The notes under the pieces are model-generated. The model was not told the origin of the DNA. It was given only the letters and a program-made list of their open reading frames with translations, and did not search any database. A program made the translations under genes and the position numbers. 64,000 nt of DNA from Tricharina praecox (Eukaryota). Shown in pieces: positions 2,735 through 40,912 of this stretch; within the stretch, counting starts at the first letter, position 1, and every line of letters starts with the position of its first letter. The DNA lies in contig NW_026250422.1 of the NCBI RefSeq assembly GCF_024521635.1, positions 372,001 through 436,000 of the forward strand, read 5' to 3'.

Positions 2735-2791
2735 AGTAACCAACGTTGGGGGGATTTACTAAAAGTAAACCCGCCCTAAACGGCGATTACT
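2735..2791 (-). other. Conserved 57-nt 3' stem-loop, copy A
   Basis: Imperfect inverted repeat 16 nt after the stop codon; homologous to 4046-4102, 15248-15304 and 39843-39899. Confidence 0.75.
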
Positions 2792-2807
2792 GCTAAAACT
2801 TTTTTTT

Positions 2808-3279
2808 CTACGTAACGATACAGCTAAGGCGACTGCTGTTGCCCGCCTGTTCCTCCCCCTCTTTCTTCGCTTCCTTCTCCGGATGCTGCTCTGGTAGCTG
2901 CTGCTCCAGCTTCTTCTCATGCTCCGCCTTCTGACGCACCTCCGCCCCCTCCTGCACCTCCGCCCCCTCCTGCACCTCCGCCTAGTGCTACAACTCCTCG
3001 CGGCGCACCTCCACGTGGCGCATCTCATCCTACATCTCCTCCCGTCCCTCCCCTCCCCACCGACCTCATCCTGTCCCTCCCCCTCCACGCAGGTCTCCCT
3101 ACAAATCCATCTCCTCAGGCCTTCCTCAACGCCAGGATGCTGGGCTTGAGGGCGTAGTAGATGTAGATCGGCTTGGGGGCGGCGCGCGCGGTCTTGGAGA
3201 TGCCGCCGCTGCCGCTGCCGCTTCTAGCGGGCTTGGGCACGCGCTTGCACAGGTTGTAGTTGTGCTTGTGAGGAGACAT
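2808..3279 (-). pseudogene. CaaX-family copy A (internal deletion, stops); tail reads QAGNSSRLSCIVT*
   Basis: Starts MSPHKHNYNL like the other copies. Core largely deleted, intron 2 absent, premature stops. Homologous to 4118..4790. Confidence 0.8.
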
Positions 3280-3539
3280 CTCTGGTATCTCCATCGCCCC
3301 TTTCTTCTTTTTCTCCATGATGCGCTTCGCATTGTTGAACGACTCCTGTATGTATCTCTGGTTGGTATCCTATCCGAGTTAGCATTCGTTATTTGCGAGT
3401 GAGGTTGTGTGATAGGACGGATATAGGTAGTACTTACTTGCGATTGGGGATAAAGTCGGGGAAAAGTTCGATATTCAAATCTGGCGTTGAAGTTGTCACA
3501 GAGAGTCGTGTGAGCGTGTGATTTGTATGATGAAGAGAA

Positions 3540-3748
3540 TGTTGGAGGGATCGATGGTGGAGATCACTGGAACGATCGTGATAGGGAGAAGTGTTGTGTT
3601 CTTGTCTAGGAGCTACAGCTACGAGAGAGGGAGGAAGAGAGAAAGAAATACAGAGCTTCGAACCGCTACCCACCAAATGTCGCTAGCACCTACCACCAGT
3701 CCACCGACTGACTAGTGGGCTACTCACAGGAACTCACTAGTTCCCACA
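3540..3748. mobile_element. Solo LTR (209 bp) inserted upstream of copy A
   Basis: Begins TGTTGGA and ends TCCCACA (TG...CA). Flanked by GAGAA at 3535-3539 and 3749-3753. Absent from the homologous position in copies B and E. Confidence 0.85.
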
Positions 3749-4045
3749 GAGAAGAAGAGAAGACAAGAGAAGAGAATAGAAGTGAGTGGGCCTGAGTGTG
3801 GGGGTTTTGTAGACCTATGGTCGGATCTTTCCACGGATTGCACAGGACTAAATAGAGGGCCACCATGACGGAGTAAACATCTCCTTCCCCAGCAGGAATC
3901 AGTGGAATATCCTACTATAGATGAAGCCTGATCAGTGTATAAAATCTGCTTGTCAATACTGTAGACCAATTCAACCACACTCTTCGGATGCGGAGTCGAG
4001 AGAAGCAAAAAAACGGAAAGAAGATGGAAAAGAAAGGAAATAAGA

Positions 4046-4102
4046 AGTAAACACCGTTGGGGGAATGTACTAAAAGTAAACCAGCCCTAAACGGTGGTTA
4101 CT
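4046..4102 (-). other. Conserved 57-nt 3' stem-loop, copy B
   Basis: Inverted repeat AGTAAACACCGTT...AACGGTGGTTACT, 15 nt after the stop. Confidence 0.75.
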
Positions 4103-4117
4103 GCTAAAACTTTTATT

Positions 4118-4790
4118 TTACATAACGATGCAGCTGAGGCCGCTGTTATTGGCCGCCTGTTCCGCCTCCTCTTGCTCCGCTTCCTCCTCCGCGTTCTCCT
4201 CCTGCTGCTCCTGCAGCTGTTCCTTCTGCAGCTGTTGCTCGAGCTGTTGCTCCTGCTCCTCCTCCTCTTGATGCTGCTCCTTCTGCAGCTGCTGCTCAAG
4301 CTGCTGCTCAAGTTCCTGCTCCTGCACCTCCTCTTGTCCCACCTCCTCTTCCTCCTCTCCGCTGATCGCCTCCAATTCCATCTCGTCAGGCCACTCCCCG
4401 CCCTCAACGCCCGCGGGAATGGAGATCTTCAAGGCCACCACGCCGCGTGGGGCGCGCTTCCCGCCGCAACTCAGGCGGTGGAAGCGCTCACCCTCGACGA
4501 GCGTGGTGTCCTTGGTGATCTCCATCTCCGTGAGGCGCGCCATCGCGCTGAACTTGAGGGCGTAGTAGATCGTCTTTGGGGCGGCCCGCGCGGTCTTGGA
4601 GATACTGCTGCGGCTGGCGGCGGTCTTGGAGGTCTGCAAGCGCGGTGTTGGCAGGTGGATTGCGGTAGGAGTGTAGGGGTGCGGAGAGTGCTTAGCTACG
4701 TACCTTGCAGGCCTTGCGGCGTGGCGGCGTGGCGGCAGCGGCCCTTTCGGCGCGCTTTCGGAGGTTGTAGTTATGCTTGTGGGGAGACAT
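4118..4790 (-). CDS. CaaX-family copy B, apparently intact ~200 aa; exons 4790..4704 and 4633..4118; ends LSCIVM
   Basis: ATG directly after a 5'-leader intron (4791-4862). Phase-0 GTACGT...TTGCAG intron 4634-4703. Uninterrupted frame to the CaaX box and stop. Confidence 0.75.
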
Positions 4791-6190
4791 CTGGTAGGTA
4801 TTCGAATTAGCAGTCGTTATTTGCGAGTGAGTTTGTGTGATATCACGGATTTACCTACTTACTTGCGCTTGTTGGCGGAGTCGTCGAAGTCCGAATTTCG
4901 AATTTTGGCGTTCGAGTCGACTTTCAGAGTCGTTTGAGCGTGGGATTTGTATGATGAATAGAAGAGAAGAAGAGAAGTGGGTGGGCGTGGAGGTTTTTAT
5001 GTGTGTTGGTGCCGCAGGCTTGAGAATGAGCTTCAATAGGCAGCTGAGGCTGGCGAGACTCAATCGCAGATGGTGAGAGATGGTGAGAGATTGTCTAGTA
5101 ATGGCCTCGCGGGGCTATTGAAGCTCACCGAGTAGCGATACTTATTAGATCTTCCCACAGATTGCGTAGGACTAGAGGGCCTCCGCCGCCGTATGTGTGG
5201 ATATTGCCATAGTCGTTAGTGTGTATATATAAAATAGCCACCGAGAAAAGTTCTCGTCGTCGTGGGGGGGATCTACGCCGTACAGTACCTCTCGTAGTGA
5301 CGTAGGTACTAGAAGCTGTCGGATAGGGGCCTGCACATATCGTTAGCATATGAAATATCATGGGACGAAACAATAGACGAACGAAGAACAGACGTTCCCC
5401 AGGGCTGCATGGTCTTCAAGTCCGTCCTAGTCGACTTATTCGTAGTGCTGAGTAACGCCCCGTCGGGCTGTCACACCAGGCGGCCGAGATGGGCGCCGTC
5501 CACCTGGGATATCTTCGTCCGGCTTCCGCAAGGAATTTGGGAAGGCTATGGAAGCGGGAATCGTCGGGGAACACTGCCTTCGTCGACGACAATTTCGGGT
5601 GTAGTAGGCATGGTTTGGAATGGAGACTCTGAAAAGTAGCTGAAGAAAGTGGAGTTCCCCCCTCACAGGTGAAGCCATTGAACTGGAAATCTTCATCTGG
5701 ATTCGTCAGAAGGCCGAACATTGGCCCGAGCTCGAGCTCCGGTCCGTCCTCTCGACGAACGAGCTGGAGCTCGGGCTCGATGTCCACTTGCAGGGTCCCG
5801 ATGGTAGCTCCGTGCTAGGCCTGTCCAATCACCCGTGGCAATTGGCCGCGTGCTTGCAGGGGTGCTGTCCCGCACTTGACCCGCACTTATATAGAGCACT
5901 TCCGCATCAGACCTCGTCGAACTCAATTCAGACGACGACAGACAGACAGACAGACAGCAACGTCCCGAGCAAAGAAACAGCTCTCACCCAGAAACTTCCA
6001 TTCAACAGGTTCGTCCCATCCATAGCAATCGATAGCCTCACCTCATCCTCCCTTCACACCTCTTCCCATCCTAATTGCCCTCCATACTACTACCATCACA
6101 ATGAAAAAGCTCACAGCCCTCTTCTGCAACGTTAATCTAGCCCCGGACTTTCACTTTCGGCTCCCCACGTCATCTCGCACAATCCGCAAA

Positions 6191-7300
6191 ATGGCCGAGT
6201 CCGTGAACCACCAGGAGGTGCATGATCTCCTCGTCGAGGTCGCTCGCAAGGCGGGTGACATGATCGCTACTGCTCAGCCGCATATCAATACCAGCTCGTC
6301 CAAGAAGAACTGTAGGTTGTTGGGATCATGGGATGTGAAGCGTGGCACTGACGGTTCGGTTTTCTACAGCGGCCGATTTGGTCACCGAGACGGATAAGGC
6401 TGTTGAGAAGTTCGTCATCGGAGCTCTCAGGGAGCGTTATCCTGACTACGAGTACGTCCCACATCTCTACGTCCTTCGCTGTATATCTCTCTTTGCTGAC
6501 TTAGACGGTGTACAGCTTCCTCGGCGAGGAGACCTACGTCCCCGGCAAGCAGCTCACGGACAAGCCCACGTTCATCTGCGACCCTATCGATGGCACAACC
6601 AACTTCATCCACGCGTTCCCGAACGTCTGCATCTCGCTAGCCCTGTGCGTCATGCGCATGCCGGTCGTGGGAGTGATTTACAATCCATGTTCGCACTCTT
6701 CCCCCGCCCCACTTCTAACCAACGAGTCGTGGCTGATATGGGGGTGCAGACACGACGCACATGTACACCGCCATCAAAAACCAAGGTTCATTCCTCACGA
6801 TGCCAGTGCGCACCGACTCCCCTACGTCCCCGGCGCCCATCGCACCCCGAAAAATCCGTCTCCCCCGCAAGCAGCACCCTGAGCCGCTCACGGGCCTCCA
6901 GAATGCCCTCTGCGCCGTAGAATGGGGCTCCGACCGTTCCGGCCACAACTTCGAAGTGAAGCACCGCACCTTCACCAAGCTCGCTGGCGCCATAGAGGAA
7001 GGTGGAAAGATGGTCCACTCTCTACGCAGCATGGGCAGCGCCGCGTTGAATCTGTGCGCTGTTGCTGCGGGCCAGGTCGATCTGTACTGGGAGGGTGGAT
7101 GCTGGGCCTGGGATGTGGCCGCGGGCTGGCTGATTCTTACTGAGGCGGGCGGGATTATGGTGGATGGAAACCCCGGCGGTTGGACGCCTGCTGTGGATTG
7201 CAGACGCTATCTGGCTATTAGGGCCGCCCCGAGTGGCCAGAAGGAGCTCGTGGAGGAGTTCTGGAGCGCCATCGAGGGAAGGATGGAGTACTCTTCTTAA
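6191..7300 (+). CDS. Inositol monophosphatase family protein; introns 6312-6369, 6452-6515, 6689-6749
   Basis: DLVTETD, GEE, DPIDGTTNF, RSMGSAAL and WDVAAG motifs; the introns restore frame. An upstream in-frame ATG exists at 6101. Confidence 0.93.
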
Positions 7301-8014
7301 GGGGACGACAAGAAGCCACAGAAGGGCGTAATCGATCCGTGATGACTGTCATTATAGTGGTAATAGGAGTGATATGCATGTTGTAGAATGAACAGTAACG
7401 ACAGAGTGCAATTGCGGTACGAGTCCAGGTGCAGATGTGCGGAAACGGGAGTAACTGTCGGCGATTTGTCGGTGAGTCTTTGAACAGTTGATGACGTCGT
7501 TTGACGACACTAATTCATGTGATATATATCTCCAAACCTCTGACCTCCATATCACCTGTAACCTCCGGGTCATGATCCAGGTACCAATGTATCTTCCGTC
7601 TTACCTGATGAAGTCATGAGATGTGGCGTAAGATACGGGATATCACTCGCGTATTCCGTTTTTGGCAGGGTTCGAGAAAGGTGCTATTTCCGGACAGGGC
7701 AGCCCCCGCTCAGAGATCAGACTTCAGACCTACCGAGGATTAATTACATGAAGTCTCCAGTGTTTGGCTCCCGCTACAAACATTCCATCCAAGCAACATA
7801 TCTCGAGAAATCGGCACGGGAGTGGAACATTTGGTCACCAAGCATCGTTCTCACGCTCGCCAAGCGTGCACCCCCCCATCGCGTCTGGTGAGGCGCAGCG
7901 CAGCTCGCAACAAAAAGAGTCACATCCCGCCGAGTTCTCGTCCATCCACCTTCCCTCGCAACCCCCACCCGCACCCGCAAAGCACCCACCACACAGTCGC
8001 CCGAAGTCTCGCGA

Positions 8015-9013
8015 ATGCCATCGAAAATTGCAACATCAATAGACCCCTTCCTCAGCCTCCTCCCGCCAGAACTGTTCCTCCTGATAGCTACCAAGCTCAA
8101 GCCCGAAGACCTCGCCTCCTTCGTCGTCTCGTCGCCGCTACTGAGCAGAACCTATGTTCCTCTCCTCATCACCTACACCTCACCGCAGGGGGAGACACTC
8201 CTCACCGGCGCCGTAATCCGGCGCCACCACGGCCTAGTGCACTCACTGCTACAACACGGGGCCGACCCGAACGTACACGACCACACCGAGCGGGCCACGC
8301 CTTTGCACCACGCCAGCATATCGGCGGACCTCTCCTCAGTGCGGCTCCTGCTACGCTTCTCCGCGCACCCCAACGCTTCCGCCCTCGGTGATATAACACC
8401 ACTGCACTTCGCGGCGACCGCCGCCGACGGACACACCATAATCCCCCTGCTGATCCGCGGCGGCGCCTCGATAAACCGCGCGAACGACACGGGCTGCACG
8501 GCGATCTGGTGGGCCGCGTCGAAAGGTCGGGAGCTCAACGTGCGTGCGCTGCTAGAGCTGGGCGCGGACGGCGCGCGCGCCGACGCCGACGGATGGTCGC
8601 CGCTACATTGTGCCGCGGCCAAGGGCTACGCGGGGATCGTGGGCGCGCTGGTGGACGCGGGCATGGGGATGGGCGCAAGGGATAATGCCGGGCTCACGCC
8701 GCTGATATACGCGGCGATGAAGGGCCATGTGGACGCGGTGAAAATCCTACTGGCGAAGGGGGCGGATGTGGATGCGGGCGATGGAATGGGCGGCACCACG
8801 GAGTTGACGGCGATTTGCTGCGCGGCCTGTGCCGGACATGAGGAGGTCGTGAGGCTGCTGCTGGAGGCGGGCGCGAGTGTGGGCCTTAGGGATGCGGTGA
8901 TCTCAGCGGGCGCTGCCGGGAAGAGAGGCGTTATGGAGATGCTGCTGAAGTGTGGAAGGGAGGAGGTCAGGGATCGCGGGGGAGAGCTCATGGCGTATTT
9001 TCGCGAGATTTAG
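8015..9013 (+). CDS. F-box-like plus ankyrin-repeat protein
   Basis: N-terminal LLPPELFLLIA F-box-like motif; repeated TPLH/TPL..AA..G ankyrin units. Confidence 0.88.
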   Translation: MPSKIATSIDPFLSLLPPELFLLIATKLKPEDLASFVVSSPLLSRTYVPLLITYTSPQGETLLTGAVIRRHHGLVHSLLQHGADPNVHDHTERATPLHHASISADLSSVRLLLRFSAHPNASALGDITPLHFAATAADGHTIIPLLIRGGASINRANDTGCTAIWWAASKGRELNVRALLELGADGARADADGWSPLHCAAAKGYAGIVGALVDAGMGMGARDNAGLTPLIYAAMKGHVDAVKILLAKGADVDAGDGMGGTTELTAICCAACAGHEEVVRLLLEAGASVGLRDAVISAGAAGKRGVMEMLLKCGREEVRDRGGELMAYFREI

Positions 9014-9742
9014 GGTGCTCTGGCCGATGGCCGATGGGTTGCTTGCGGGGGTGTTTAAAAGCGCTACATTGCCTTTGGTTCTGGTTCAATGTCTATCTCT
9101 TCTTCTTTTTCTTTTTCTGTCAGCTGACGATATGTTTATGGTCTCGGGCTTCTTGTGGTTTTCATTTCTTTGCTGTTGCTTTTTGCGTCTACTTAGCATG
9201 CGTTTGTTTTGTTTTTTCCTCGGAGTTCGCTTGATTTTGTTTATATAGCGTGCGTTTCGTTTATTCGGCCTGGGGCTTTACTTTTCGACAGAGGAGGGCT
9301 TTCGTTTGGTGGCCTTTTGGTCACGATTGCTGAGGATTTGGGATTGGGTTGCTGGATGTTCTGATGGAGAGTACCTAGGGGAAAGACTGCGGAGGGAGGA
9401 GGTTTCAAGAAACAGGAGGGCGGATGGGGAAGGAATGGAGTCAGTCTGGTGATGGGGATACGAGCATCTGTGATGAGTGGTTGGAAACCGAGCAAACCAT
9501 CACTGCCATCTCGACGTCCGCCGTCGACGCCGACACCGGCAAAGATCCCTCCAGCCCTGGAAATGGCGACTATCGAAACGGTATAAAGCTGTAGAGTACA
9601 CGCCGCCTCCAAGAGACGACCGAGACCAAAAGGAGAGAGAAAACGCCGTCTATGTAAAACCGTGGAAGAAAAAAAAAACCCTCCAGAAAAAAAAGCCACA
9701 GCCATCTCTTCTCTGCAGCCACTATCCCCATCCAACCTCCTC

Positions 9743-10237
9743 CTACAGCCCAGCAATATCAAAACTAGTCCCACACCCACAACTACTTGTGGCAAGCGGG
9801 TTCTTGACCACAAACTGACTCCCAATCAGCTCCTGGGTGTAATCCACCGTGGACCCCTTGAGCAACTCCAAACTCGGCTCGTCAAGCACAACCCTGGCGC
9901 CAGTCTCCTCATCGGTAAACAACGAATCCTCGGCGGGATTCACCTTGTCTGACAGCGAGATCGTGTACTGGAAGCCGTGGCACCCGCCGGACTCCACCGT
10001 TACTCGCAGCGCCAGAAGGGGATTCGAGTCTCTCGTCTGGATCGCTTGTAGTCGTGAGGATGCTCGTGGGGTCAGCACGATCGACATCGTCGCTGAAGGG
10101 TCGGTGGGGTCGGCGCGCGGGTTCGTAATCTGTAGGCCGAGGAGCCGCGGGGTGAGGCTGAGGGCGCGGTGGGATGTGATGCGGTAGGCTGGGAGGACCC
10201 GGGGGCGTATTCGTAGGAGAGGGCGGAAGGGGTTCAT
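9743..10237 (-). CDS. ISA2: Mitochondrial A-type Fe-S cluster assembly protein Isa2
   Basis: Basic presequence; VESGGCHGFQY and SSCGCGTSF motifs. Confidence 0.93.
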   Translation of the reverse strand: MNPFRPLLRIRPRVLPAYRITSHRALSLTPRLLGLQITNPRADPTDPSATMSIVLTPRASSRLQAIQTRDSNPLLALRVTVESGGCHGFQYTISLSDKVNPAEDSLFTDEETGARVVLDEPSLELLKGSTVDYTQELIGSQFVVKNPLATSSCGCGTSFDIAGL

Positions 10238-10568
10238 GCTTGCGGTGGACGGTGGGTGGTGGAAGATGCGGTGAGGTCGAGTGGTTCGCGGCGCGGCAAC
10301 GGGTGATTATGTTGAAGTTGTGCTCGGCGGGAGAGAGATGAAGCCGATGGATCCACAATGCACATCGCCGGCGGCGAATGACGCCACTGTGGTCGGACTT
10401 GGCACCACACCACACCCACCCACCCTACATCCCCGCCATCCGACGATAAGCGATATCCACCCCGCCATACCTCAGCCCACTCTACACTACTTCTTTAAAA
10501 GTGACGCAGTCGAGCTGGAGCTTTCTCTCAAGAGTCTACTATATACATACAAAGCTACACACCACGCA

Positions 10569-12172
10569 ATGGACTCGACGCAATTCGACAGCTTTCTTCG
10601 TGGTGATCGTATATCCCTAGCGGATTCCAAGTCGACGTCACTGGAGTACGCGCAGCATCTCGACAGTATCGATCCCCTGCGACGCTTCCGTGACGAGTTC
10701 CTAATTCCCTCGAAGTCGGACTTGAAGGACCCGCACCCGGAGGCGAAGCCTGTCTTGGAGCAGAATGGTTCGTCTTTTGTACACCGAAAGCAAGAGGTGG
10801 AGTGAGAATCGCTGATGGAGTGTGAGAGAAGACGCCTCGGATCCATGTATTTACCTCTGCGGAAACTCACTCGGGCTGCAACCCCGCCGCACACGCACCC
10901 TCCTCAACGAGGAGCTGAGTATCTGGGCCACCCGCGGGGTAACCGGTCACTTCAACCATCCACAATCCATGCCGTGGGTCTCGGCCTCGGAGACGGTCAG
11001 CGTGTCCATGGCGAAAATCGTCGGCGCCCTGCCAAGCGAGGTGGCAGTGATGGGCTCGCTCACCGAGAACATCCACCTGCTGCTTGCGAGTTTCTACAAG
11101 CCTTCAGGATCGCGGACAAAAATCGTCATCGAGGGCAAAGCCTTCCCATCCGACCACTACGCAGTAGAGTCGCAAATATCCTGGCACGGGCTGGATCCGG
11201 CAAAGCACCTCGTGTGCATCCACCCCAAAGCCGGCGACGGCGAGTACACCATCTCAACAGCGCACATCCTCCGCACGATCGACGAGCACCACGACACGGC
11301 GGCACTCCTCTTCCTCAGCGGCGTGCAGTACTACACCGGGCAGGCGTTCGACATCAAGACGATCACGGCGCACGCACAGGCGCGGGGCATAACCGTCGGC
11401 TGGGATTTTGCCCACGCCGTTGGCAACATCCCGCTCGAGCTGCACGAGTGGGGCATCGACTTTGCCGCCTGGTGCACGTACAAATACCTCTCGTCTGGTC
11501 CCGGCGGCATGGCAGGGATCTTCGTACACGACAAGCACGCCGCCGGCGGACGACACAGGCTCGCCGGCTGGTGGGGCCATAATCCGGAAAGCAGATTCAA
11601 GATGGACAACAGTATGTAGCTCTTCCCTGCCCACCTGCTCCATCCACGGCTTGTGTGTGCATACATACATTACTAACGACCAGCTAGACTTCGTCCCGAC
11701 GCCGGGCGCAGCGGGCTACCAAGTCTCAAACCCCAGCATAATGTCGCTCACCGCGCTCCGCGCCTCACTATCAGTGTTCACAGAGACGTCGATGAGCAGT
11801 CTGCGCACGAAATCTGTGCACCTAACCAACTACCTCGAGCACCTTCTACAGACCACCTTCTCCTCCCCCACCACACCCAGCCCATTCAAGATTATCACGC
11901 CCGGCGACCCGCAGCAGCGCGGCGCACAGCTCAGCCTGCTGTTCGGAGAGGGCCTCATGCTGCCGGTTTATGAGCTTCTGCATAGCCAGGGCATCGTCGT
12001 CGACGAAAGGAAGCCGAACGTTATCCGTGTAGCCCCGCTGCCGATGTACAATACGTTCGAGGAGTGCTGGAGGTTCGTGCAGGCGCTGAAGAGCGCGTTG
12101 GAGTCGGTGGGGGAACCGAAGGTCGGTGCAGAGGAGAGGGACGCCGCAGAGAAGGGGCCGACTAGTCCGTAG
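10569..12172 (+). CDS. BNA5: Kynureninase; introns 10768-~10828/10831 and 11612-11687
   Basis: YLCGNSLGLQP, AFPSDHYA, WCTYKYL (PLP lysine), RGAQLS and IRVAP motifs. The first acceptor position is uncertain. Confidence 0.95.
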
Positions 12173-13226
12173 GATACTTTGATGATCGAGTGCTGGAATC
12201 GCGGGTTTTAATGCTTTGTCGTGAGTGGGTGAGTGAGTGCTATGACATGTGGTTTTCGGTCGTGGTTGAACTCCAGGTTACACATTGAACCAGAGACCTC
12301 GACTGTATGTAGACAGGAAACGGAGATAAAAGTGTATGTCGCCATAGTCTAGGTATATCGATTGAGAGAGAGATCTTCAATTTATTTCGCAGTATATCAA
12401 TTATGTACGGGTATTGAAATAAAAAAGTAAACTGCAGGTAATAACTACTATCTCCGGCAATATTCCAACCCCCTCAACCTCCCCCTCAATCGATGAGATT
12501 ACCACCTATCGAAACTGACTCTCGACTTACTAGTACTCCAAATAAATGCGGTCTGCCAACACCAGACAACGGGCTCGCCACCAGATCACACCTAGAGTGG
12601 TTCTCGGCGGCGCATTTGGCTGGATGTTTTATAAACCGATCGAGTTTTTATCTATAGCAGGAGACATAGTCCACTAATTGCTGCTGGGGGAGGAGATGTT
12701 TACTCCGTCAGGGTGGCCCTGATTGTGGACTGTAGTCCTGTGCAATCCGTGGGAAGATCTTATCAGAGGTCCGGACGGCGCACGGTATCGCCGCTCGGTG
12801 AGGTTCAATAGCCCCGCGAGGCAATTACTAGACCTTCCTTCACCATCTACGAGTGAATCTCGCCAGCCTCAAGCCCTTATATACCTATTGAAGCTTATCC
12901 TCAAGCCTGGGGCACCAACACGCCTATCAAAACCCCCACGCCCACCCACTTCTCTTCTCCCCTTTTCTTCGTCCCTTCATCATACAGATCTCACGCTCAC
13001 AAGAATCTCGACGTCAAATTCAATACAAAATTTGATTATCAAACGTTGACGAGTACCATCTCAGGTAAGTACCAGGAACAGCCAATACGTTGTGCCTCAC
13101 CACTATTTCGAATCATAAGCACAAGGTGAGGCACCACATACCCTTAGTTACACCCGAGTACTATATCCGTCTTATCACAAATACTCACTCGCAAATAATG
13201 AATGCTAACCCAGACACCTACCAGCG

Positions 13227-13705
13227 ATGTCCCCTCAGAAACACAACTACAACCTCCGCAAGCGCGCTGCAAAGGCCGCTGCCGCCACGCCGCAAGGCCG
13301 CAAGGCCCGCAAAGTACATAATTACAATCTGCACTCCTGGTTATCACGTTACATCAACCAACACCGGGCGTACAGACCTCCAAGGCCACTGGCAACGGCA
13401 TTTCCAAAACCGCCCGCACCGCCCCAAAGACCATCTACTACACCGTCAAGACCAGCACGATGGCCCGCCTTGCGGAGATGGAGTTCGCCGTGAACACCAC
13501 GCTCGTCGAGGGTGTGCGCTTCTACCGCCTGCCTGACGGCTCGAAACGCGCCCCACGCGGCGTGGTGGTCATGAAGATCTCCATCCCCGCTGGCGTTGAG
13601 GGCGGCGAGTGGCCTGATGAGATAGACTTTGAGGAGATCCGCGGGGAGGAGGAGGTGGAGCGCCAGGCGGAGGCGGAAGCGGAGGAGAGTGATTGTCAGA
13701 GCTAG
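13227..13705 (+). CDS. CaaX-family copy C, open ~138 aa but 3'-truncated (no CaaX, no hairpin); exons 13227..13313 and 13376..13705
   Basis: MSPQKHNYNLRKR start; phase-0 intron GTACAT...TACAG; core homologous to copy B; ends EESDCQS*. Confidence 0.65.
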
Positions 13706-14589
13706 AAAATCCGCATTTTAAGGATACATTGACCGAAAACGAGCTACGGTCCAAGGAACACACCGATCAGGTTGCATCTGTAGTAGGATAGTCCACTAAT
13801 TCCTGCTGGGGAGATGTTTACTCCGCCATGATGGCCCTAGATCTATGTAGTCCTGTGCAATCTGTATGCATAGGAAGATTTAATCAGAGTTCCGGACGGC
13901 GCGAGCGGTATGTATCGCTGCCCGGTGAGATTCATCCGTTCTCGGTTCCTATATTGCTTGGTCCTATGATATATCATATGCTAATGATATGTGCAGGCCC
14001 CCATCCGACAGCTTCTATTACGGTACGTCACTACGAGAGCTATTTTCGGTGGGTGTTTTATACAGCAATAACTACTTCAATATTCAGATATGACGGCGGC
14101 GGCCCTCTAGTCCTGTGCAATCCGTGGGAAGATCTTATCAGAGGTCCGGATGGCGCGAGCGGCATGCATCGCCGGTCGGTGAGACTCAATAGCCCGCGCG
14201 ACGCCATTACTAGACCATCTCTCACCATCTGTCATTGAGTCTCGCCAGCCTCAGATACCTATTGAAGCTTATCTCAAGCCTGAGGCACCAACACACCCAT
14301 CAAAACCCCCACACCCACCCACTTCTCTTCTTCTCTTGTATTCACCACACACTTCCGACGCTCAAACAACTCTCAGCTCCAAATCCAACGCCAAATTGAT
14401 ATCGAACGTTGACAAGCACCATCTGAAGTAAGTACTAGGAACAGCCAATAAGTCACGCTTCACCACCGTCACGAATTATAAGCGCAAGGTGAGGCACCAC
14501 TTACCCTTAGTTATACCCGAGGATTATATCCGTCTTATCACATAAACTCACTCGCAAATAACGAGTGCTAACTCGAGTACCTACCATAG

Positions 14590-15231
14590 ATGTCTCCTCA
14601 GAAGCACAATTACAACCTCCTCAAGCGCGCCGCAAAGGCCGCTACTACCATGCCCCCAAGGTACATAATCACAATCCGCACTCCTAGTTATCACATTACA
14701 TCAACCAACACCGGGCGTACAGACCTCCAAGGCCACTGGCAACGGCATCTCCAAGACTGCCCGCACCGCCCTCAAGCTGACCAACATCTACTACGCCGCC
14801 AAGCCCAGCACGATGGCACGCCTTGCGGAGATGGAGTTCTCCGTGCACACCACGCTCGTCGAGGTTGTGCGCTTCTACCGCCTGCCTGGAGGCTCGAAAC
14901 GCGCCCCAAACGGCGTGATGGTCTTGAAGATCTCCATTTCCGCGGACGTTGAGGGCGGTGAGTGGCCCGAGGAGATGGATTTGCTGGAGGTCGGTGGGGA
15001 GGAGAAGATCGGTGGGGAGGGGGGGGAGGAGGACAGGGGGAGGGACAGGAGGAGGTGGAGGTGTGCCAGGAGGCGGAGCATGAGAAGAAGCTGGAACAGC
15101 AGCTACCAGAGCAGCGGCTAGAGAAAGAACAGCAGGAGGAGGAGGAAGCCGAGAAAGCGGAGGAAGCGGAGGAGAAGCAGGAGGAGGGACAAGCGGGAAA
15201 CACCAGCCGCCTCAGCTGCATCAATATGTAG
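14590..15231 (+). pseudogene. CaaX-family copy D, frameshifted; tail QAGNTSRLSCINM*
   Basis: Exon 1 is 71 nt (out of phase with exon 2 at 14723). A second frameshift lies in the G-rich tract near 15010-15050. Confidence 0.78.
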
Positions 15232-15247
15232 AAAAAACAGTTTTAGT

Positions 15248-15304
15248 AGTAACCACCGTTTGGGGCGGGTTTACTTTTAGTAAATCCCTGCAATGGTAGT
15301 TACT
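15248..15304 (+). other. Conserved 57-nt 3' stem-loop, copy D
   Basis: AGTAACCACCGTT...AATGGTAGTTACT with inner TTTACT-TTT-AGTAAA, 16 nt after the stop. Confidence 0.75.
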
Positions 15305-16100
15305 TCTTATTTACTTTCTTTTCCATCTTCTTTCCTTTCCTTTTTTGCTTCTCGCGACTCCGCATCCGAAGCTGCTGCGGCGTGTGGTTGAATTGGTATA
15401 CGAGTGATGGCGAGACATACACAGTACCTGTAGTATGTACCAACCTGCCATAACTCCAACGCTTTGGTTTGGATCACACTTGTAGTTGTAGACTTGTTCC
15501 CACTGCCTCAGTCTGACTCCAGCCATCCAGCATCTACACATTCCACCCCTTTGACACATTCCGGCCAGTGGCGTACCGGTACCTATCACATAACCCAGCC
15601 TGCATGGCAGCAGCACACATTCGAACCGTCAGAAGTGAGTGAAACGGCCCATGCCGAAGCAGCGAAGCTCTCCTCCTCAGTTCGTCGCTTAAGTGTGTTT
15701 GTTAGCCCGCTGCCCGACGAGAGCAAGCCGTGACTTGTGGAACGAGGCGGTTGGCTGATGTGGAGGAATCGTGGGGAGGGGGAGCCTGCTGTAGCCTGAG
15801 GTAGTGCAGCATTCCGGGGTGCGCATTGACAGAAGCCTGGTTCACGGGCCATGTAGCGATAACTAACGCAGGTTTGGAAGTTGGAACGAGTTAACGCTCT
15901 ATGAGTCTATGTGCACAAAGGCCTAATTAAGCCTTAACATGTCATTATCAACTTGGAGACCACGGCTGCGTCCTCGCCCCACATCCTAACCCCCACCTCA
16001 CAATCCCTCACGGCCAAAGCTCCTCAGCACCCGCCATCCATCAAAACAAAAGCGAACACGGCATTTGCAAAACAAATGACAAAAGAAAATCTTGATCAGA

Positions 16101-16192
16101 TGATTCAGCCGGGATTTGAACCCGGGTCGGGCGCAGAATGCTAATGCAAGATGCAATGGCAAGCGCCCATGATACCCCTACACTACTGAATC
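16101..16192 (-). tRNA. tRNA with GCC (Gly) anticodon, 21-nt intron 16136-16156, atypical acceptor stem
   Basis: Cloverleaf: GATTCAG/CTGAATC, GGCGC-TTGCCA[intron]T-GCGCC, CCGGG-TTCAAAT-CCCGG, A73; T-runs downstream. Confidence 0.9.
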
Positions 16193-16545
16193 GAGTGATG
16201 TTCTTTGGTTTTATCTTTTGAACATGATGACTGTAGCTTACCTCCGCTCGTAATCCTGTGATGGAAATCATAAATATTCCGTATCCGACCTCGTGGGTGA
16301 TGGGAGTCATGGCTTCTAAGTTCTGAGGCGTAATTGTGGAACCTTCGAGAAAGAAGGATACCTACGGCACTCTCATCGTCCTCTGCTAGGTATCTCCACA
16401 TCTGCAGGCTTGCCAATACCGGTAATGAACAGTGGTTCTATATTGTATTCTGGGGCAAACCTTGTGACTCGCCTCGGTATCTAACTATCAATTTCCCACC
16501 GAAATTCAATCGGTACATCGGGAACGGGTGTCCGCCAGTCGAGCA

Positions 16546-18218
16546 TTACAGGAAAGAGAAAAAGCGCAGAGCAGTAAGACCCTCATATTTCCTTGTACAG
16601 AAAGAACCGGAGATCAAAACACCAGGTAACTGAACCCCAACGCCCACAACACGAGAATTCAGAACCGTGTCTGAAACTCTCGCACAATAGAAATATGATC
16701 TTGTACCCCAGCAGTAACTTGTAAGCAACTACTGTCCAGCGGCAGGGATGATCATAAAGTCGGGTACCTCATTCTCAATCGCAACATCGGTCTTCTTCCA
16801 AGTTCTCCTGGCCTTGGTTGGCTTCGCCGGCATCAGAACATAAGCCGAATACAGAGAATCATCCTTGAGACCATCGGCAGCAGCAACCTTCATGATACGA
16901 TCAAGGGCCACGCTGCGAGGGAAGTTCGAGGGAAGTTCAAAGGATCTTCATTGCTCTTGTGGAGGAATCTAGATAATGGTCAATTTAACATCATCACCGT
17001 TGCTGGACTGGTAATACTGACACCATAGTCCAAGTGAAAATTTTCCTGTTAGTCTTGCGTTAACCTTTTACAAGATTCCCCATTGCTCCGCTAGGTAGTG
17101 CTCCACAATAATTGATTATTCATTCTTGTCGAAGAATGTGGAAATAGTGTGAATGGTGTAGTCGTTGACTCCCAGACTGCACTCAATTTTGGTGAGGGTG
17201 AAAATTACGACAAGAAAATTGGCGGTAGTTGTTGGGGTTTGTGGCTGTGAGTCTGGAAGTAAACCGGCCGTAAAGTGTCATGTTCCGGTAGTTGAGGAAG
17301 TGCGGCGTTGCGGTTCGGGCACTTCGCGGTGATCTCCATACGGCCCGGCCAAGCATCCTCACAAACTTCCATATCTAACTAAAGCAGCTAGGTCTCTTCA
17401 AGCCGTCGGGCCTCCCCATATGTACAAGGAAGATCATGTGGGTCCTCGGCATTCTTGTATTTGGAAGGGGAGTCGGGGAACTGTTCGGGCCCATTCGATA
17501 TGGTATTCATTCTCGTCTCGAGCAAGTTTCAGAGCTGCTGACCCGAATTGACGAGGATGAGTACAATTGTCAGCTGGTCGCCCAGAGCGGGGATTGCTTG
17601 GTCGTTGAGCTGTCGATCGGCTTGGTCCATATCGCGCTTCCGTCGCCCTGAGCTGTGCGATGTTTTCCTTGATGGGATCGGGGTCGGAACAACCCACTTG
17701 ACCAACCGATGGAATGGCGGTGTCGGCGGCAAACAAGTACCGTACCAGGATGGTAGGTCAGTGGTGCTTCACCTTGCGCTCATAATTTATAAAGGTGGTG
17801 AGGCACGACTTATTGGCTGTTCCTGGTACATAAGCCACTGAATATTGGCAACTAAGAGGGTCTGTCGTAACTGGATGTTGTCGGCCCGCTCGGCGACGAC
17901 AAGATCCATCGCCGATCCCGAATCCCGAATCCACAGTCCATGCGGACAAACTACGCCTCTGTAATAGGTATCGAAGACAACAGAGGAGGTAGTCAACTTT
18001 CTCGCGAGTCGGTTTGAACTGTTCTCCGCCTTCAGAAGGAATGTACCGACCGACAGGGTAGTTGGTCTCAACGTAAATAGCTGGCGAGATCCGCCGGCGG
18101 TATTCGGCAGCGTGCTCGTCAAGCGGTTTTCGGTCGGTCATCTTCTGGATGCGAATCAAGTCCGTAAGTCCTTGCGCTTCTTCTTTATGCTCATCTCATC
18201 GAGCTTGCAGTGTTGTCA
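16546..18218 (-). pseudogene. Degenerate coding region of unknown family
   Basis: ORFs 17758..18159 and 17434..17736 share a frame split by one stop. ORFs 16729..16911 and 16546..16728 abut in one frame. A further coding-like stretch with a stop lies at ~17070-17340. Boundaries approximate. Confidence 0.45.
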
Positions 18219-19516: not shown

Positions 19517-20071
19517 ATGTTGCCCTACAACCAACCATACAACTATCCGCAGCAGCCGCAGGCGTTGAGGCCTTTGGGCGTCAACCAGCAGCAGGAGCAG
19601 CCGTTGCTCAGCACGCTTCTCGCGGAGCTTGAAACGTCACAGGCGCAACAGAAACAGGTGAGTGCGAGCGTATTTCGGCAGGCGAGTGCACGAATCCAGC
19701 AGCTAAAGGAAGCGGCAGCAGCAGCAGCCGGCACCGGTGGCGCTCCAGCCATGGCAGCAACGGGTGAAGGAACGGGAGCAGAATAATGCGGCGCAGCAGA
19801 ATGCGTACCGGCAGAAGCAACAGTCGTTTCCCAATGCGTTCGTCCAGCAGCAGCGGTTTGGACAACAGCAGAAGCAGTATGGACAGCAGCAGCAGCTTGG
19901 ACAACAGCAGCAGACTGGACATCTTCAGCAGGTGTATCAACAGCGTATGGACCTCAAGCGCAAGCAGCCGCACCATGGTCCACAGTCGCAGGTCGGAAAG
20001 ATCCAGCAGTTCGGTCAGCAGCAGAAGCTTCAGCATCACCAGCGGCCGTATTACCAGCAGAAGATGAAGCC

Positions 20072-20125
<54 letters not shown>

Positions 20126-23803: not shown

Positions 23804-24779
23804 TGGTTGGGGACATCTAGTGCTGGAGTAAGTGGACATTCGGATCAGGGGAATTAAAATCCAAATGCGGTAATACATTAGCATTTATTAAGTTTATTTA
23901 ATCTTTTTTTTCCCAGGCGTCCGCAGCCAACTGGCCCCGCCGGGAACGAAAATCAAAATATTGCGGCCAGTTATTGCTCGTTTTCTTCAATAAAACACAC
24001 CTCTGAACTGCACTGTTGCGCTTGTTCCATCAGTTGGATTGTTCCACCGGTCTGTCGCCGCTGACCAGGCGGCCGCAGCTAACTCCAGAGCTCCATGGCC
24101 CCGCCGGGACCGAAAATCACAATATCTCCGCCAGTTCTTGCCCGTTTTCTTCGATAAAACACTCCTCTGGATCGCACGAGCACGCTCATTCCATCGATTC
24201 CATTCTCCACAGGTCTGTCACCATTAACCGCGCTTCTGCAGCCCACTCCACAGCTTCAGAAGTTCAGCGCTCCACAGCCCCACCGAGACCGAAAATCACA
24301 ATTTCTCGGCCAGTTCTTGTCGATTTTCCAAGGCGCAGATATACAAAGCTCATCAACAGGTTAGCGATCAACTGGAATAGTATCAAATTTGTAGGTAATT
24401 GTTTTCTATTTATGTACATAATATTCTTTGTCACAACAATTAGTGACCATATTGTGCTGCCAAGATGTCCAGATCGGGTAATCAGGCGTGCCAAGACTGC
24501 CTAATGGGGAACTCAGCCGTGCTAAGACTGGGCTGTGGCAGCCTTGCCCCTGGACATTCCCGGGGCCTCCCCATACTAAATCATTTTTCGTCTATTTATT
24601 TTGGATTTTGGTTGCCACTCAACCACAACGCTTAAAAAAATCGGGCTCTTTGAAAATTACCTCCTTCCTCTTCTCTATCGCTGTAAGAGCTCTTTTTTTA
24701 TTAATTAGGTTGTTGTTGTGAGCTAACCGAACGTCAAAAGTGGGGGTGCTTTCATTCCGGAACTAGATGTCCCCAACCA
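23804..24779. mobile_element. Non-autonomous TIR DNA element with TA target duplication (Tc1/mariner-type)
   Basis: TA|TGGTTGGGGACATCTAGT...ACTAGATGTCCCCAACCA|TA; 18-bp perfect TIR extending imperfectly; three internal direct repeats at ~23940, 24105 and 24285. Confidence 0.85.
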
Positions 24780-29920: not shown

Positions 29921-29998
29921 GGAGCTTGGAGCTTGGAGTTTTGAGCTTGGAGCTTAGAACCTTGAGCTTGGAGCTTGGAACCTTGAGCTTGGAGCTTG
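29921..29998 (+). repeat. Degenerate GAGCTTG heptamer tandem array
   Basis: Visible tandem repetition. Confidence 0.8.
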
Positions 29999-32900: not shown

Positions 32901-33027
32901 TGAAACAATTCGACGAAGAAACAAACCTAGGTGAGGGGTGGAAATTTTCGGACAACAAAGTTGGTTGGCTGGCTGTGAGGAAGGGGGAAATTTTTCGGAC
33001 AAGAAAGTTAGTTGGCTTTCCATGAGG

Positions 33028-33073
33028 GAAGGGGAGCGAAGGGGAGCGAAGGGGAGCGAAGGGGAGCGAAGGG
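33028..33073 (+). repeat. (GAAGGGGAGC)4 tandem repeat
   Basis: Visible decamer repetition. Confidence 0.85.
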
Positions 33074-37402: not shown

Positions 37403-39241
37403 ATGCTCCTCTCCTCACTCCAGCCGCTCCTCTTTCTCGCCCGCAGCTACGACTACATAATCGTGGGCGGAGGCACAGCGGGGCTCACCCTAGCGGGAAG
37501 ACTCTGCTCTGACCCCAGCGTAACCGTCGGCGTTCTCGAAGCCGGCCCAGACGCGCACAACGACCCACTGGTCTACATCCCGGGCTTCTACGGGTACCCG
37601 CAGCGGTCGTCGGGCTACGGCCCCGACGACTCCCCGCTGGACTGGGGCTTCAGGACGGAGCCGCAGCCGCACGTCGACAACCGCCGCATGCCCTGGTCGC
37701 GCGGGAAGATGCTCGGCGGCTCCAGCGCGCTCAACTACATGATCTGGGACGTCCCGTCGGCGCCAGAGTACGATGCGTATGCCACCCACGGTAACGCCCC
37801 CGGCTGGAACTGGTGCACCGTCTCCGCCGCTGTGAATAAGGCGTGGAGGGCGATCCAGCCCGGCGTCCTCACCGGGCAAGCGGGAGAGTTGTCGGTGCAG
37901 AAGTTCGTCACCCCCGGGACAGAGCTGTTTGCGCCTACCCTCAAGAAGCTTGGCGTCAAGGTCAATCCGAACCCGCTGAGCGGTGATGCAATCGGCACAT
38001 ATGATTCTCCGGCGTCCATCCTGAATGGCGCCAGTACGAGGTCGTACAGTGTCTCGGCGTATCTCCTGCCGAACGCGCACCGTGATAATCTGGTAGTGTT
38101 GCCCGGGGCGACGGGTGCTCGTGTGGTGCTGGATGCGAGCAACAGGGCGATTGGGATGGAGTTTCTGGACTGCAGTGGGCGGAACCACACGGCGTTCCTC
38201 AATCCTGACGGAGAGGTGGTGTTGTCGGCAGGAAGCACGCAGACGCCGCAGCTGCTAGAGCTCTCCGGCATCGGGAAGAAGAGTGTGCTCGATGCCGTGG
38301 GGATTCCCGTCCGCGTGCGCAACGACAACGTCGGTGAAGATCTGCAGGATCACCTATGTAGGCTCTCCCCCACTTCTCCCCAGTATATCCCGCGATACGT
38401 CTAACAGCCAGCCACAGTCGCCCCCCTCGTCTACGAAATTACGCCGGGCATCCCCACGCGCGACCTGCTCCTGACCTCGCTGCCCTTCCTCGCCACAGCG
38501 GAGGCGAACTACACCAACCACCGTGACGGCATCCTCTCCTCGGGCATTTCAGCGCTGTCCTTCGTCCCTCTCACGAACGTCATGGACCCACCCGCTCTCT
38601 CACGTCTAATCGCGGAAACCAAGCTCTCCAAACCATCGGTGGACCCGTTCTCAACCTTCACACTCCCCTACTCCCCGCAGCACCGCGACGCCAACAAAGT
38701 AGCCCAACTCGAGTTCCTCTTCGGCAACTACAAAGTGACTCCCGGCCCACGGGAAGTGGGGAAGTCGTACATTTCGATCTGGGCGTGCCTGTTGCACCCG
38801 TTGTCACGCGGGAGCATCCACATCTCGTCACGCGACCCGCTGGTGCCGCCCGTTATCGACCCACAGTATTACAGCGAGGCGGTGGACCGCGCGGTCATGC
38901 TCGCGGGTGTGAAGTTCGCGGATAAGATTGCGAATACCGCGCCGCTGAGCGGGATTATAAAGCGGAGGGTCGACCTGCCGCCAGGGAGGTTGACGGATCA
39001 GCAGCTGTGGGCGTATACGAAGAAGGTTACGCAGAGTATTTGGCATCCGGTCGCGAGTGCCGCGATGGGGAAGGTCGTCGATGACAGGCTACGCGTGTTT
39101 GGCGTTAAGGGGCTGAGGGTTGTCGATGCGAGTATCGCCCCCCTCCTTATCTCAGCGCATAGTCAGGCTACCGTCTATGGCATTGCTGAGTTGGCAGCTG
39201 AGATTATGAAGGAGGATAGGAGGAGGAAGACGTGCTTCTGA
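37403..39241 (+). CDS. GMC oxidoreductase (AA3-type flavoprotein); intron 38358-38417
   Basis: DYIIVGGGTAG, RGKMLGGSSALN, TPQLLELSGIG, VGEDLQDH, WHPV and GLRVVDAS motifs. Confidence 0.95.
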
Positions 39242-39842
39242 TTTCGGTCGCTTTGGGTGGTTGGTGGGGGGTTTCCAAGTTACTCAATTATCACTGTTTT
39301 TGCTGTTTAGTGTTCCTGTATTTATATTTTGTCCGCCATTGGTTTGTCCTTCCGAAGTTGCTATGTATTAGTTACAAGTATCAATCCCGTGCCGATACTC
39401 CCACGTGCAAGTGGGACCATGTCCGATACCTACTGTACTCGTACAGTTACATATCTGCCGTTTCACTCATTTTTCACTCAATTCTGATGGTTAGATGCAG
39501 GTCGGAATATGTCGACGGGGAGTGGAATTTGTCGATGCTGGACATTTCTACAGCTACAATTACAAGTAGGATCCGAACCAAGGCGTTGGGGTTGTGGCAG
39601 GTTTGTACTGCAGGTACTGTGTAGGTACATACCTACGTCTCGCCATCACTCGTATAGAAGGTGGGGGGATTGTGTCCCAACCCATTTGCTTTCATTCCGT
39701 GCGCTGCCGAGAATCACTGTAGGTGGATATTCGCTATTTACAATACTAATAGATCAGTTCAACTACTCACATGCAGCCGCTTCGGATGGGTGCGTCGCGA
39801 GAAGCAAAAAGAAAGGCAAGATGGAAAAGAAAGTAAATAAGA

Positions 39843-39899
39843 AGTAACCACCGTTGGGGGGATTTACTAAAAGTAAACCCGCTCCAAACGGTGGTTACT
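39843..39899 (-). other. Conserved 57-nt 3' stem-loop, copy E
   Basis: Perfect 13-bp outer stem AGTAACCACCGTT/AACGGTGGTTACT, 19 nt after the stop. Confidence 0.8.
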
Positions 39900-39918
39900 G
39901 CTAAAATTGTTTTTTTTT

Positions 39919-40305
39919 CTACATAACGATGCAGTTGAGGCGGCTGCTATTGGCCGTCTGTCTCTCCCCCTCTTTCTTCCCTTCCTTCACCTCCTCCTTC
40001 TGCTGTTTCTTCTCCTTCTGTTGCTCTGATAGCTGCTGTTCCAGCTTCTTCTCATGCTCCGCCTCCTGGCGCACCTCCACCTCCTCCTGCGCCTCCACCT
40101 GGTGCTGCATCTCATCGTGGCGCACCTCCCCCTGTCCCTACTCCTGTCCCTACTCCTATCCCTCCTCCTCCCCGCGGACCTCCTCAAAATCCATCTCCTG
40201 GGGCCACTCACCGCCCTCAACGCGAGCGGGGACGGAGATCTTCATGACCACCACGCCGCGTGGGGCGCGCTTGCGGAGGTTGTAGTTGTGCTTCTGAGGA
40301 GACAT
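39919..40305 (-). pseudogene. CaaX-family copy E: in-frame deletion and three in-frame TAG; tail ANSSRLNCIVM*
   Basis: MSPQKHNYNLRKRAPRGVVVMKIS fusion; TAG at 40156-40158, 40150-40152 and 40138-40140. Confidence 0.8.
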
Positions 40306-40850
40306 CTATGGTAGGTACTCGAGTTAGCACTCGTTATTTGCGAGTGAGTTTATGTGAAAAGACGGATATAGAGTTGTACTCGGTGTAAGGGTAAGTGATG
40401 CCTCACCTTGCGCTCATGATTCGTAATGCTGGTGCGGTACGACTTATTGGCTGTTCCTGGTACTTACTTGAGAGAGTATTCGTCAAAGTTCGATATTCAA
40501 ATTTTATATTGAATTTGGCGTCGAGAGTCTTGTGAGCGTGAGATCTGTATGATGAAAAGGAGAAGAGAAGAAGAGAAGAGAAGTGGGTGGGCGTGGGGGG
40601 GTTTTTGATAGGCGTGTTGATGCCTCAGGCTTGAGATAAGCTTCAATAGGTATCTGAGGCTGGTGAGACTCAATTGCAGATGGTGAGGGAAGGCCTACTA
40701 TAGTAATGGCCTCGCGGGGGCTATTCAATCTCACCGAGCGGCGATACATACCGCTCGCGCCGTCCGGACGTCTGATAAGATCTTCTCACGGATTTCACAG
40801 GACTACCGTACATAGAGGGCCACCATAACGGAGTAAACATCTCCTCCCCA

Positions 40851-40912
40851 AACGGTGGTTACTGCTAAAACTGTTTTTTCTACATAATGATACAACTGCT
40901 GCGGCTGGTGTT
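40851..40912 (-). pseudogene. CaaX-family relic F: tail NTSRSSCIIM* plus half of the hairpin
   Basis: Last 10 codons and stop (40880-40912) followed by one hairpin arm, joined to the upstream region of copy E. Confidence 0.75.

Follow-up and report, generated by a model that had tools for sequence, protein, structure and literature searches.

Proteins that join a nuclear localisation signal (NLS) to a C-terminal CaaX box act on nuclear membranes. This is reported for green fluorescent protein (GFP)-NLS-CaaX and for Kugelkern (Kuk), which deforms yeast nuclei (PMC2947476). The plant protein NMCP1 is described as needing an NLS-linked R/Q/H-YNLR-R/H motif to reach the nuclear periphery (PMC3935212), and in foamy-virus Gag Y537-x-L539-R540 is reported as the acidic-patch anchor of the chromatin-binding site (PMC9040877). 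The wtf genes are described as multicopy, pseudogene-rich and shaped by non-allelic conversion (PMC9562144), and for template-switch hairpins a one-step inverted copy is reported to make a long stem whose arms are kept matched by later switches (PMC10710096). In this study, we analyzed a multicopy gene family with a CaaX box in a stretch of 64,000 nucleotides (“the window”) of Tricharina praecox (contig NW_026250422.1, positions 372,001 to 436,000), to which a sequence-only reading had drawn attention.

The family is real, expressed, species-restricted and of the birth-and-death type, and it is neither a described family nor a transposon; the public annotation holds it only as doubtful hypothetical models. 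The most unusual feature shown is a hairpin-coded core under double constraint. The most interesting one, inferred by analogy, would be a role at the nuclear envelope. The reading we prefer, to which we give an even chance of being right, is a young, lineage-restricted, protein-coding birth-and-death family with a farnesylated, probably nuclear-envelope product.

Self-comparison of the window gave six copies (A to F, Table 1) that are 72-83% identical across several hundred bases; together with translation, it located them where the sequence-only reading had placed them. Translation also returned the protein plan proposed there, with a basic start, a core of about 70 residues, an E/Q-rich coil and a CaaX-type ending. 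The leader intron claimed for the five longer copies is indeed common to them, as a 25-nt leader-intron motif recurs five times in the window where 0.00 would be expected. At the C-terminus, A carries CIVT, B and E carry CIVM, D has CINM and F has CIIM, while C ends DCQS without a box. A Cys-Ile-x-(Met/Thr)-stop pattern was found six times in the window (0.06 expected), five of these being family copies; the CICM-stop match at 24846 was rejected as unrelated, with no other family sequence around it. As had been claimed, B is the sole complete copy in the window, with 200 aa once its intron is removed. Other claims held in part. Most copies are decayed (only a tail is left of F, and A, D and E are pseudogenes), but C has an open frame that no stop breaks; F carries the CIIM tail, but extends over 81 bp rather than 40880-40912. 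The arrangement “always in pairs” applies loosely, given a third remnant at 13760-13934 and three consecutive models on another contig. No described family matched, yet three NCBI models, all of doubtful structure, cover the window copies. What had been missed is that the family “core” is a DNA fold-back.

Copy B is a transcribed, spliced gene, running from the ATG at 4790 to the TAA at 4118. Four sequencing runs were compared with positions 1000-16500 of the window at 80% likeness. One of them (X1) is DNA; X2 and X3, from two separate studies, are not on record as RNA and were judged to be RNA from splice joints, since GT-AG joints occur in neighbouring genes. The predicted junctions of B were present in these runs, namely 4633/4704 (X3), 4790/4859 (X2, X3), 5049/5129 (X2) and 5329/5382 (X2, X3), so that two of the four joints were found in both. 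Among the RNA contigs listed for B, there were no differences from the window over 4139-4602 (X2) and 4156-4633 (X3), and a check for A-to-I editing accordingly gave none, although contigs drop rare variants. The 5′ leader of B extends towards a divergent inositol monophosphatase gene, with which it may share a two-way promoter. A strong hairpin (Z -4.8) lies in the far leader at 5651-5830, beside the start of that gene.

Of ten candidate proteins of 94-300 aa, only the NCBI model BZA05DRAFT_446805 matched the B core. This model fuses B with A via an intron that removes the CaaX box, and NCBI models also fuse C with D. No B-to-A joint was among the 15 joints listed from X2 and X3 (30 more exist), and RNA depth across the coding bin of A was 0.56 and 0, a weak hint against the fusion, which we disfavour. 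X1 and X2 contain a contig linking a C-like core to a B-like tail; this points to transcription of a paralogue at another locus as well.

An inverted-repeat search found repeat arms within the coding core, where codons 23-65 form a fold-back of ~128 nt. Its z-score is -7.7 in B, -6.7 in C and -3.6 in the broken copy D, with none of 200 shuffles as stable in each case. In a scan of 2555 segments of 130 nt each, the B core gave the strongest fold (Z -8.1), followed by the 3′ hairpin of E (Z -5.7). B and C have 45 pairs in common, all but three within core codons 23-65, and these mostly join third with third and first with second codon positions. The DNA profile of the unit matches its own opposite strand at the core (E 1.6e-10 to 4.6e-8), and the family protein profile weakly matches the antisense frame of B (E 0.023). 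Double compensatory changes between B and C affect 2 of 54 predicted pairs. Six other proteins are stem-compatible, with 16-17 forced pairs and 3-5 forced mismatches versus ~13 mismatches in shuffles, a compatibility owed largely to shared residues. Further hairpins lie in the 5′ leader and the 3′ untranslated region (UTR), with compensatory changes in 0/25 pairs of the 3′ and 0/31 pairs of the 5′ hairpins. In two broken copies the fold-back is lost, as the whole stem-loop in A and as the left arm in E. An inverted-copy route to a long stem, as raw material for new genes, is likewise described for primate miRNAs (PMC10710096); unlike in that account, the stem here belongs to a spliced coding exon that is selected at the protein level.

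The part of the protein outside the hairpin evolves under purifying selection: the ratio of nonsynonymous to synonymous substitution rates (dN/dS) between B and C is 0.28 (0.10-0.67) over 66 codons of exon 1 and the core flanks (Fisher p 0.001). Within the fold-back, synonymous sites are constrained, with a dS of 0.08-0.13 inside versus 0.37-0.40 outside the hairpin at alike third-position GC content (0.87 vs 0.85), and with 5/43 variable third positions inside versus 14/37 outside (p 0.008). Conservation of stem third positions reached p 0.003-0.006 using the C structure. Across the first 13 codons of copies A-E, codon positions 1, 2 and 3 show 1, 1 and 8 changes; the last 11 codons show 3, 6 and 6. 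The Cys of the box is retained in 7/7 copies with a tail. Arm-to-arm template switching could yield compensatory changes without selection (PMC10710096). It would not favour third positions, however, and we therefore take the stem to be under selection, a conclusion we hold with moderate confidence.

Retained introns show that the copies arose by duplication of DNA. Retrocopies would be recognised by precise intron loss and a poly(A) end; here, the leader intron is kept in 5/5 long copies, and the intron of the coding sequence (CDS) is present in B, C and D and gone together with flanking exon in A and E. The closest partner shifts along the unit (C-D intron 94%, D-E leader 98%, D-E acidic part 98%, C-E 5′ exon 90%, B-D 3′ flank 94%), a mosaic of the kind that ectopic exchange would leave. 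F breaks off halfway through its 3′ hairpin and is fused to the upstream block of E, and the promoter-only remnant at 13760-13934 indicates that C-D was once a triplet. In agreement with the sequence-only reading, no terminal inverted repeats (TIR) or target-site duplications (TSD) were found at five end pairs, set from homology limits rather than empty sites, which gave only 6-8-nt repeats at chance level. Unit ends differ among clusters, leaving no common ends at which Helitron features (5′ TC, 3′ CTRR with a sub-terminal hairpin, A/T insertion) could be defined. Among the matches listed, 2-4 other X1 contigs fall on the core positions of C; together with five models elsewhere, this suggests a copy number of about a dozen. 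Repeat-induced point mutation was rejected, as transitions were spread over 36 CpA, 49 CpC, 46 CpG and 43 CpT in five copy pairs.

Taken together, the absence of unit TIR and TSD, the low copy number, the retained introns and the mosaic identities argue for duplication and ectopic exchange and against a transposon. It is probable that the family multiplied through tandem duplications, short-range rearrangements and ectopic exchange, that the core is an inverted duplication, and that fold-back-driven deletion aided decay. Deletion at fold-backs is an established phenomenon, and it probably contributed to the loss of stem sequence from A and E. A core born as an inverted duplication would explain why it has no homologue and no confident fold. 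Among the origins that had been suggested, a rapid birth-and-death gene fits, with B transcribed and spliced, purifying selection outside the hairpin and the Cys retained; a non-autonomous element as the whole unit does not, with no TIR or TSD at cluster ends, introns kept and few other core copies. In X1, positions 13121, 13471, 14071 and 14455 (within 12800-15250) have only other letters among the matches listed, with near-identical flanks, and the X1 strain may thus carry a different C-D arrangement.

The predicted B protein combines a basic N-terminus (net charge +13 over residues 1-50), a neutral core, an acidic stretch (-27 over residues 119-190) within a single predicted helix of ~70 residues, and CIVM. 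A CaaX box whose last residue is Met directs farnesylation, and a farnesylated protein without a polybasic second signal stays on endomembranes. The farnesyltransferase pattern C-aa-Met-stop is present in B and E, in F, and in the models P0006 and P0007 (CIVM); D deviates by an Asn at a2 and A by a final Thr. If B is translated, Cys197 is likely to be farnesylated, and the acidic rather than basic stretch before the box would send the protein to endomembranes. More tentatively, YNLRKR may import B into the nucleus, where it would act as an inner-nuclear-membrane protein like Kugelkern or an NLS-CaaX lamin tail. The motif is kept in 4/5 models from other contigs as Y-x-(L/I)-R-K-R. The NMCP1-like and Gag-like N-terminal motif and the precedent of NLS plus CaaX are our grounds for this tentative placement at the inner nuclear membrane.

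By homology, the family is not a member of the lamins, Kugelkern or NMCP. It has in common with Drosophila Kugelkern and NLS-CaaX lamin tails a coiled or helical segment, a basic NLS-like motif and a C-terminal CaaX, and such proteins are described as affecting nuclear membranes even in yeast cells, where a lamina is absent (PMC2947476). Unlike Kugelkern, it shows no sequence similarity in phmmer or two profile searches, has the motif N-terminal and the helix C-terminal, is multicopy and mostly decayed, and has a predicted localisation. B-type lamins and Dictyostelium NE81 also unite a basic motif with a CaaX box, and in the lamin B tail an acidic stretch precedes the box; unlike them, the family has 160-200 aa, no long intermediate-filament rod and no filament family in Pfam. 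The Ig-like lamin tail domain had no Pfam match, and the core model is too poor for a verdict on the fold. N/R/S-YNLRKR next to basic residues (NYNLRK, RYNLRK) resembles the motif reported for plant NMCP1/CRWN (PMC3935212), but K rather than R/H stands at the last place of this six-residue look-alike, which is too short to prove kinship, and neither NMCP rod nor homology is present. The Y-x-L-R spacing described for foamy-virus Gag (PMC9040877) recurs in B, C, E, P0006, P0008 and P0009, and its Arg is lost in the broken copies A and D; the likeness is at motif level, there is no Gag homology, and nucleosome binding by the family is putative.

In the course of events that we propose, an inverted duplication would have given rise to the core, copies would multiply via tandem duplication, short-range rearrangement and ectopic exchange, and the fold-back would drive deletions that help them decay. 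The farnesylated Cys197 would anchor the protein on an endomembrane and the basic YNLRKR would import it, so that its seat would be the inner nuclear membrane; there it may shape the envelope or tether chromatin, while the mRNA stem could add RNA-level control. A more specific version seems rather unlikely: a lamin-less fungus would have evolved de novo a farnesylated tether between chromatin and nuclear membrane (Y-x-L-R anchor, CaaX) round an inverted duplication, with a stem that is still selected and drives the deletions that kill copies.

A phmmer search of 1.84 billion representatives gave eight matches, seven T. praecox models and one Logan protein that is identical to P0009 across the aligned core. 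Two profile searches, each over the 8000 best candidates, gave seven and eight matches, the same set plus P0012. None of these searches, which remote relatives may escape, matched outside T. praecox. Three models cover window copies (B+A, C+D, E), and five lie elsewhere: P0006, P0009 and P0007, with consecutive accessions, share a contig with P0012, and P0008 is on another. The distant paralogues P0006 and P0007 (~55% core identity) end CIVM as B does, although 91, 76 and 59 aa follow the core in B, P0006 and P0007. In a tree, window copies and other-locus members form two clades (100/100 support). Residues 1-9 of P0008 and P0012 read like a translated branch point and acceptor of the leader intron; their annotated starts are therefore probably placed too far upstream, and the intron is probably theirs as well.

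Pfam assigned no family to B and C exon 2 and only weak composition matches to nine aligned members, and PDB sequence searches had no match. The ESM Atlas held no usable match for B, and for P0007 the best feature score (0.82) and the best template-modelling score (0.50) were below thresholds. Foldseek found nothing at E <= 0.001 and the best VIA Z was 4.5, with a core model too poor to judge the fold. Metagenome contigs contained no match to the leader motif, and 0/98 pattern matches there and 0/53 in viral contigs were confirmed; a single match in phage records (E 0.7) was discarded as chance. Rfam reported only a tRNA in the window. A literature search found no description of the family, the genome paper of the species being outside what it returned.

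Several observations weigh against a selected, farnesylated, nuclear-envelope protein. The translation and role of B are predicted from sequence. The CaaX codons at 4121-4132 lie beyond the RNA contigs listed for B, which reach only to 4139 and 4156, the leader when fully spliced measures 790 nt or more and holds six upstream ATGs, and the annotated fusion with A, although disfavoured, would yield an mRNA that loses the box. No CaaX is present in C, P0008, P0009 or P0012; P0007, with HNLQKR in place of YNLRKR, has neither the Tyr nor the Arg of Y-x-L-R; and the motif likenesses are only six residues long. AlphaFold gave a predicted local distance difference test score of ~40-60 for the core in both models, and so no confident core. 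Whole-core dN/dS, which had been named as a check on the family, is ambiguous at 0.74 (0.36-1.55) for B-C and 1.07 for B-D (0.67 for C-D); a split at the hairpin gives the low ratio outside it. The split between hairpin and flanks comes from three related sequences, one a pseudogene, with the hairpin span set from B and C. When the B structure is taken instead, conservation of stem third positions falls short of significance (p 0.07-0.09), and where codons have changed in other-locus proteins, roughly half the pairs become forced mismatches.

The same family could instead encode a farnesylated protein outside the nucleus (endoplasmic reticulum, Golgi, vesicles), such as an acidic adaptor or prenylation decoy whose N-terminus is no NLS. 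The CaaX kept in distant paralogues, the acidic tail, which argues for endomembranes, and the variant motif of P0007 would all agree with this. We nevertheless regard it as unlikely, as changes in the basic N-terminal motif are more biased towards synonymous ones than those elsewhere (1/1/8), and as the motif is kept in four of the five other-contig models and comes close to the NLS-linked motif reported for NMCP1 (PMC3935212). A mainly RNA product, with the stem as Dicer substrate or regulatory structure (hairpin-RNA or microRNA-like) and the protein secondary, would account for the synonymous constraint in the stem, the stability of the B and C folds, the additional leader and 3′-UTR hairpins and the six upstream ATGs; moreover, the core (0.13-0.19, uncorrected) is no less divergent than non-coding segments (0.02-0.18). 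It would not account for the low dN/dS outside the stem, a leader intron that stops at the ATG, the frame and CaaX kept across distant paralogues, or the lack of compensatory change in the 3′ and 5′ hairpins, and is quite improbable.

A 16-nt motif that is identical in four upstream blocks (3873, 12697, 13815, 40833) contains GTAAACA, which we take to be a forkhead-type site. Such a site upstream of A, C, the remnant and E, several copies with many decayed and mosaic identities recall the multicopy, pseudogene-rich, conversion-shaped wtf genes of S. pombe, for which a forkhead-type site nearby is likewise described (PMC9562144). The family might then be a selfish meiotic driver or toxin-antidote system, in which the CaaX and non-CaaX forms, full-length and tail-less, would be poison and antidote. 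However, Pfam, profile and structure searches found no toxin-like domain or homologue, the intact copy B has no GTAAACA upstream block, poison or antidote isoforms were not seen, and the family seems to comprise only about a dozen copies. GTAAAYA, a 7-mer for which chance predicts 7.7 matches per window, occurs at 17 places, an excess that comes partly from the upstream-block copies. Unlike wtf, the family shows no homology to it and no flanking long terminal repeat or 5S rDNA in the window; dual isoforms and drive, which are features of wtf, would be hypothetical for the family. We give this explanation a slim chance. Slimmer still, and the least probable of those weighed, is the case for a mobile but non-autonomous unit (fold-back, composite of miniature inverted-repeat transposable elements (MITE), or Helitron-type) whose reading frame is incidental. 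Head-to-tail copies at three places and in two orientations within 40 kb, several inverted repeats per unit and a MITE-like leader piece in C, D and E with a solo copy would be expected of it; end pairs without TIR or TSD, unit ends that vary by cluster, purifying selection on the protein, the few X1 contigs on the C core among the matches listed and the absence of a transposase from 44 scanned frames would not.

Species-restricted families are common in fungi; in the protein-coding birth-and-death family preferred here, the origin is readable and a double constraint acts on protein flanks and a 128-nt stem. This stem makes up most of the core, a compact case of a coding domain from an inverted duplication, with structure shaping gene death. 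If the nuclear-envelope reading is true, an NLS-CaaX protein would exist in a lineage without lamins. Three public gene models are corrected, one of them removing the CaaX box.

Table 1. Positions of the family copies and associated features in the window.
Feature	Position	Strand	Remarks
3′-UTR hairpin of A	2735..2791	-	z -6.6
Copy A, pseudogene	2808..3279	-	stop after 54 codons; ends CIVT
Copy A losses	2808..3279	-	CDS-intron region and entire core stem-loop deleted
Leader exon and leader intron homology of A	3371..3539	-	homology, leader motif
Shared upstream block of A	3812..3944	-	16-nt motif with GTAAACA; connects 3′ flank of B to A
3′-UTR hairpin of B	4046..4102	-	z -2.7
B coding exon 2	4118..4633	-	K/A linker, core, acidic helix, CaaX (CIVM 4121-4132), TAA
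B coding fold-back, core codons 23-65	4409..4536	-	strongest fold of the window
B CDS intron	4634..4703	-	70 nt, GT-AG; joint 4633/4704 in RNA run X3
B coding exon 1	4704..4790	-	MSPHKHNYNLRKR basic N-terminus; translation, RNA
B leader intron	4791..4858	-	68 nt, ending exactly at ATG; joint 4790/4859, X2 and X3
B 5′ leader	4859..5779	-	5′ end not defined; introns 5050-5128, about 5331-5382
C upstream block, leader exon and intron	12627..13226	+	includes ~90-bp leader insert from 13069
Copy C	13227..13705	+	open 138-aa frame, intron 13314-13375, fold-back 13467-13594; ends before acidic tail, no CaaX
Seventh remnant, upstream block only	13760..13934	+	between C and D; self-comparison and profile search
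D leader, B-type	13935..14589	+	leader insert from 14432
Copy D, pseudogene	14590..15231	+	16-nt deletion in exon 1, second frame change past core; CINM; fold-back 14820-14947 decayed
3′-UTR hairpin of D	15248..15304	+	z -3.7
Solo leader insert, MITE-like	17745..17829	-	short terminal inverted repeats
3′-UTR hairpin of E	39843..39899	-	z -6.8
Copy E, pseudogene	39919..40305	-	CIVM ending; three TAG stops in frame; linker, CDS intron and left hairpin arm lost by an in-frame deletion flanked by short direct repeats (~40272)
E leader and upstream block	40306..40849	-	homology
Copy F	40832..40912	-	last 10 codons (CIIM), stop, left half of 3′ hairpin; abuts upstream block of E

The leader insert is a MITE-like piece of ~85 bp, bounded by short terminal inverted repeats that are flanked by TA, with a hairpin inside. 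Besides the solo copy, which a profile search of the window also matches (17756-17832), it sits as a ~90-bp insert in the leaders of C, D and E (13069, 14432, 40463) and not in those of A and B; it was either inserted in the former or lost from the latter. It is more widespread than the core, with 14 contigs in X1 and 8 per RNA run, and a summed depth of ~1000 in X3. A different repeat interrupts the upstream region of A at 3540-3750; at 3579, eight X1 contigs have other letters, and related RNA contigs exist.

T. praecox is a pezizalean, post-fire fungus. A Pfam scan that took in 44 of the 264 frames of the window showed ordinary genes as neighbours of the family (MYND finger, inositol monophosphatase, ankyrin repeat, Fe-S assembly, kynureninase and GMC oxidoreductase). 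The GMC oxidoreductase frame is split by an in-frame stop within a GT-AG intron (38358-38408), an ordinary arrangement. Three alike intron-containing tRNA genes, probably Gly (GCC), lie at 16101-16192, 51067-51158 and 52129-52221 (all -), one of them ~600 bp from copy D; ARAGORN left their identity undecided and Rfam matched one of the three. A degenerate direct repeat with a period of ~164 bp and 73% identity occupies 23932-24328. Upstream of a pentatricopeptide repeat (PPR) gene, a hairpin at 56476-56605 (Z -5.2) adjoins a 30-unit TCT repeat.

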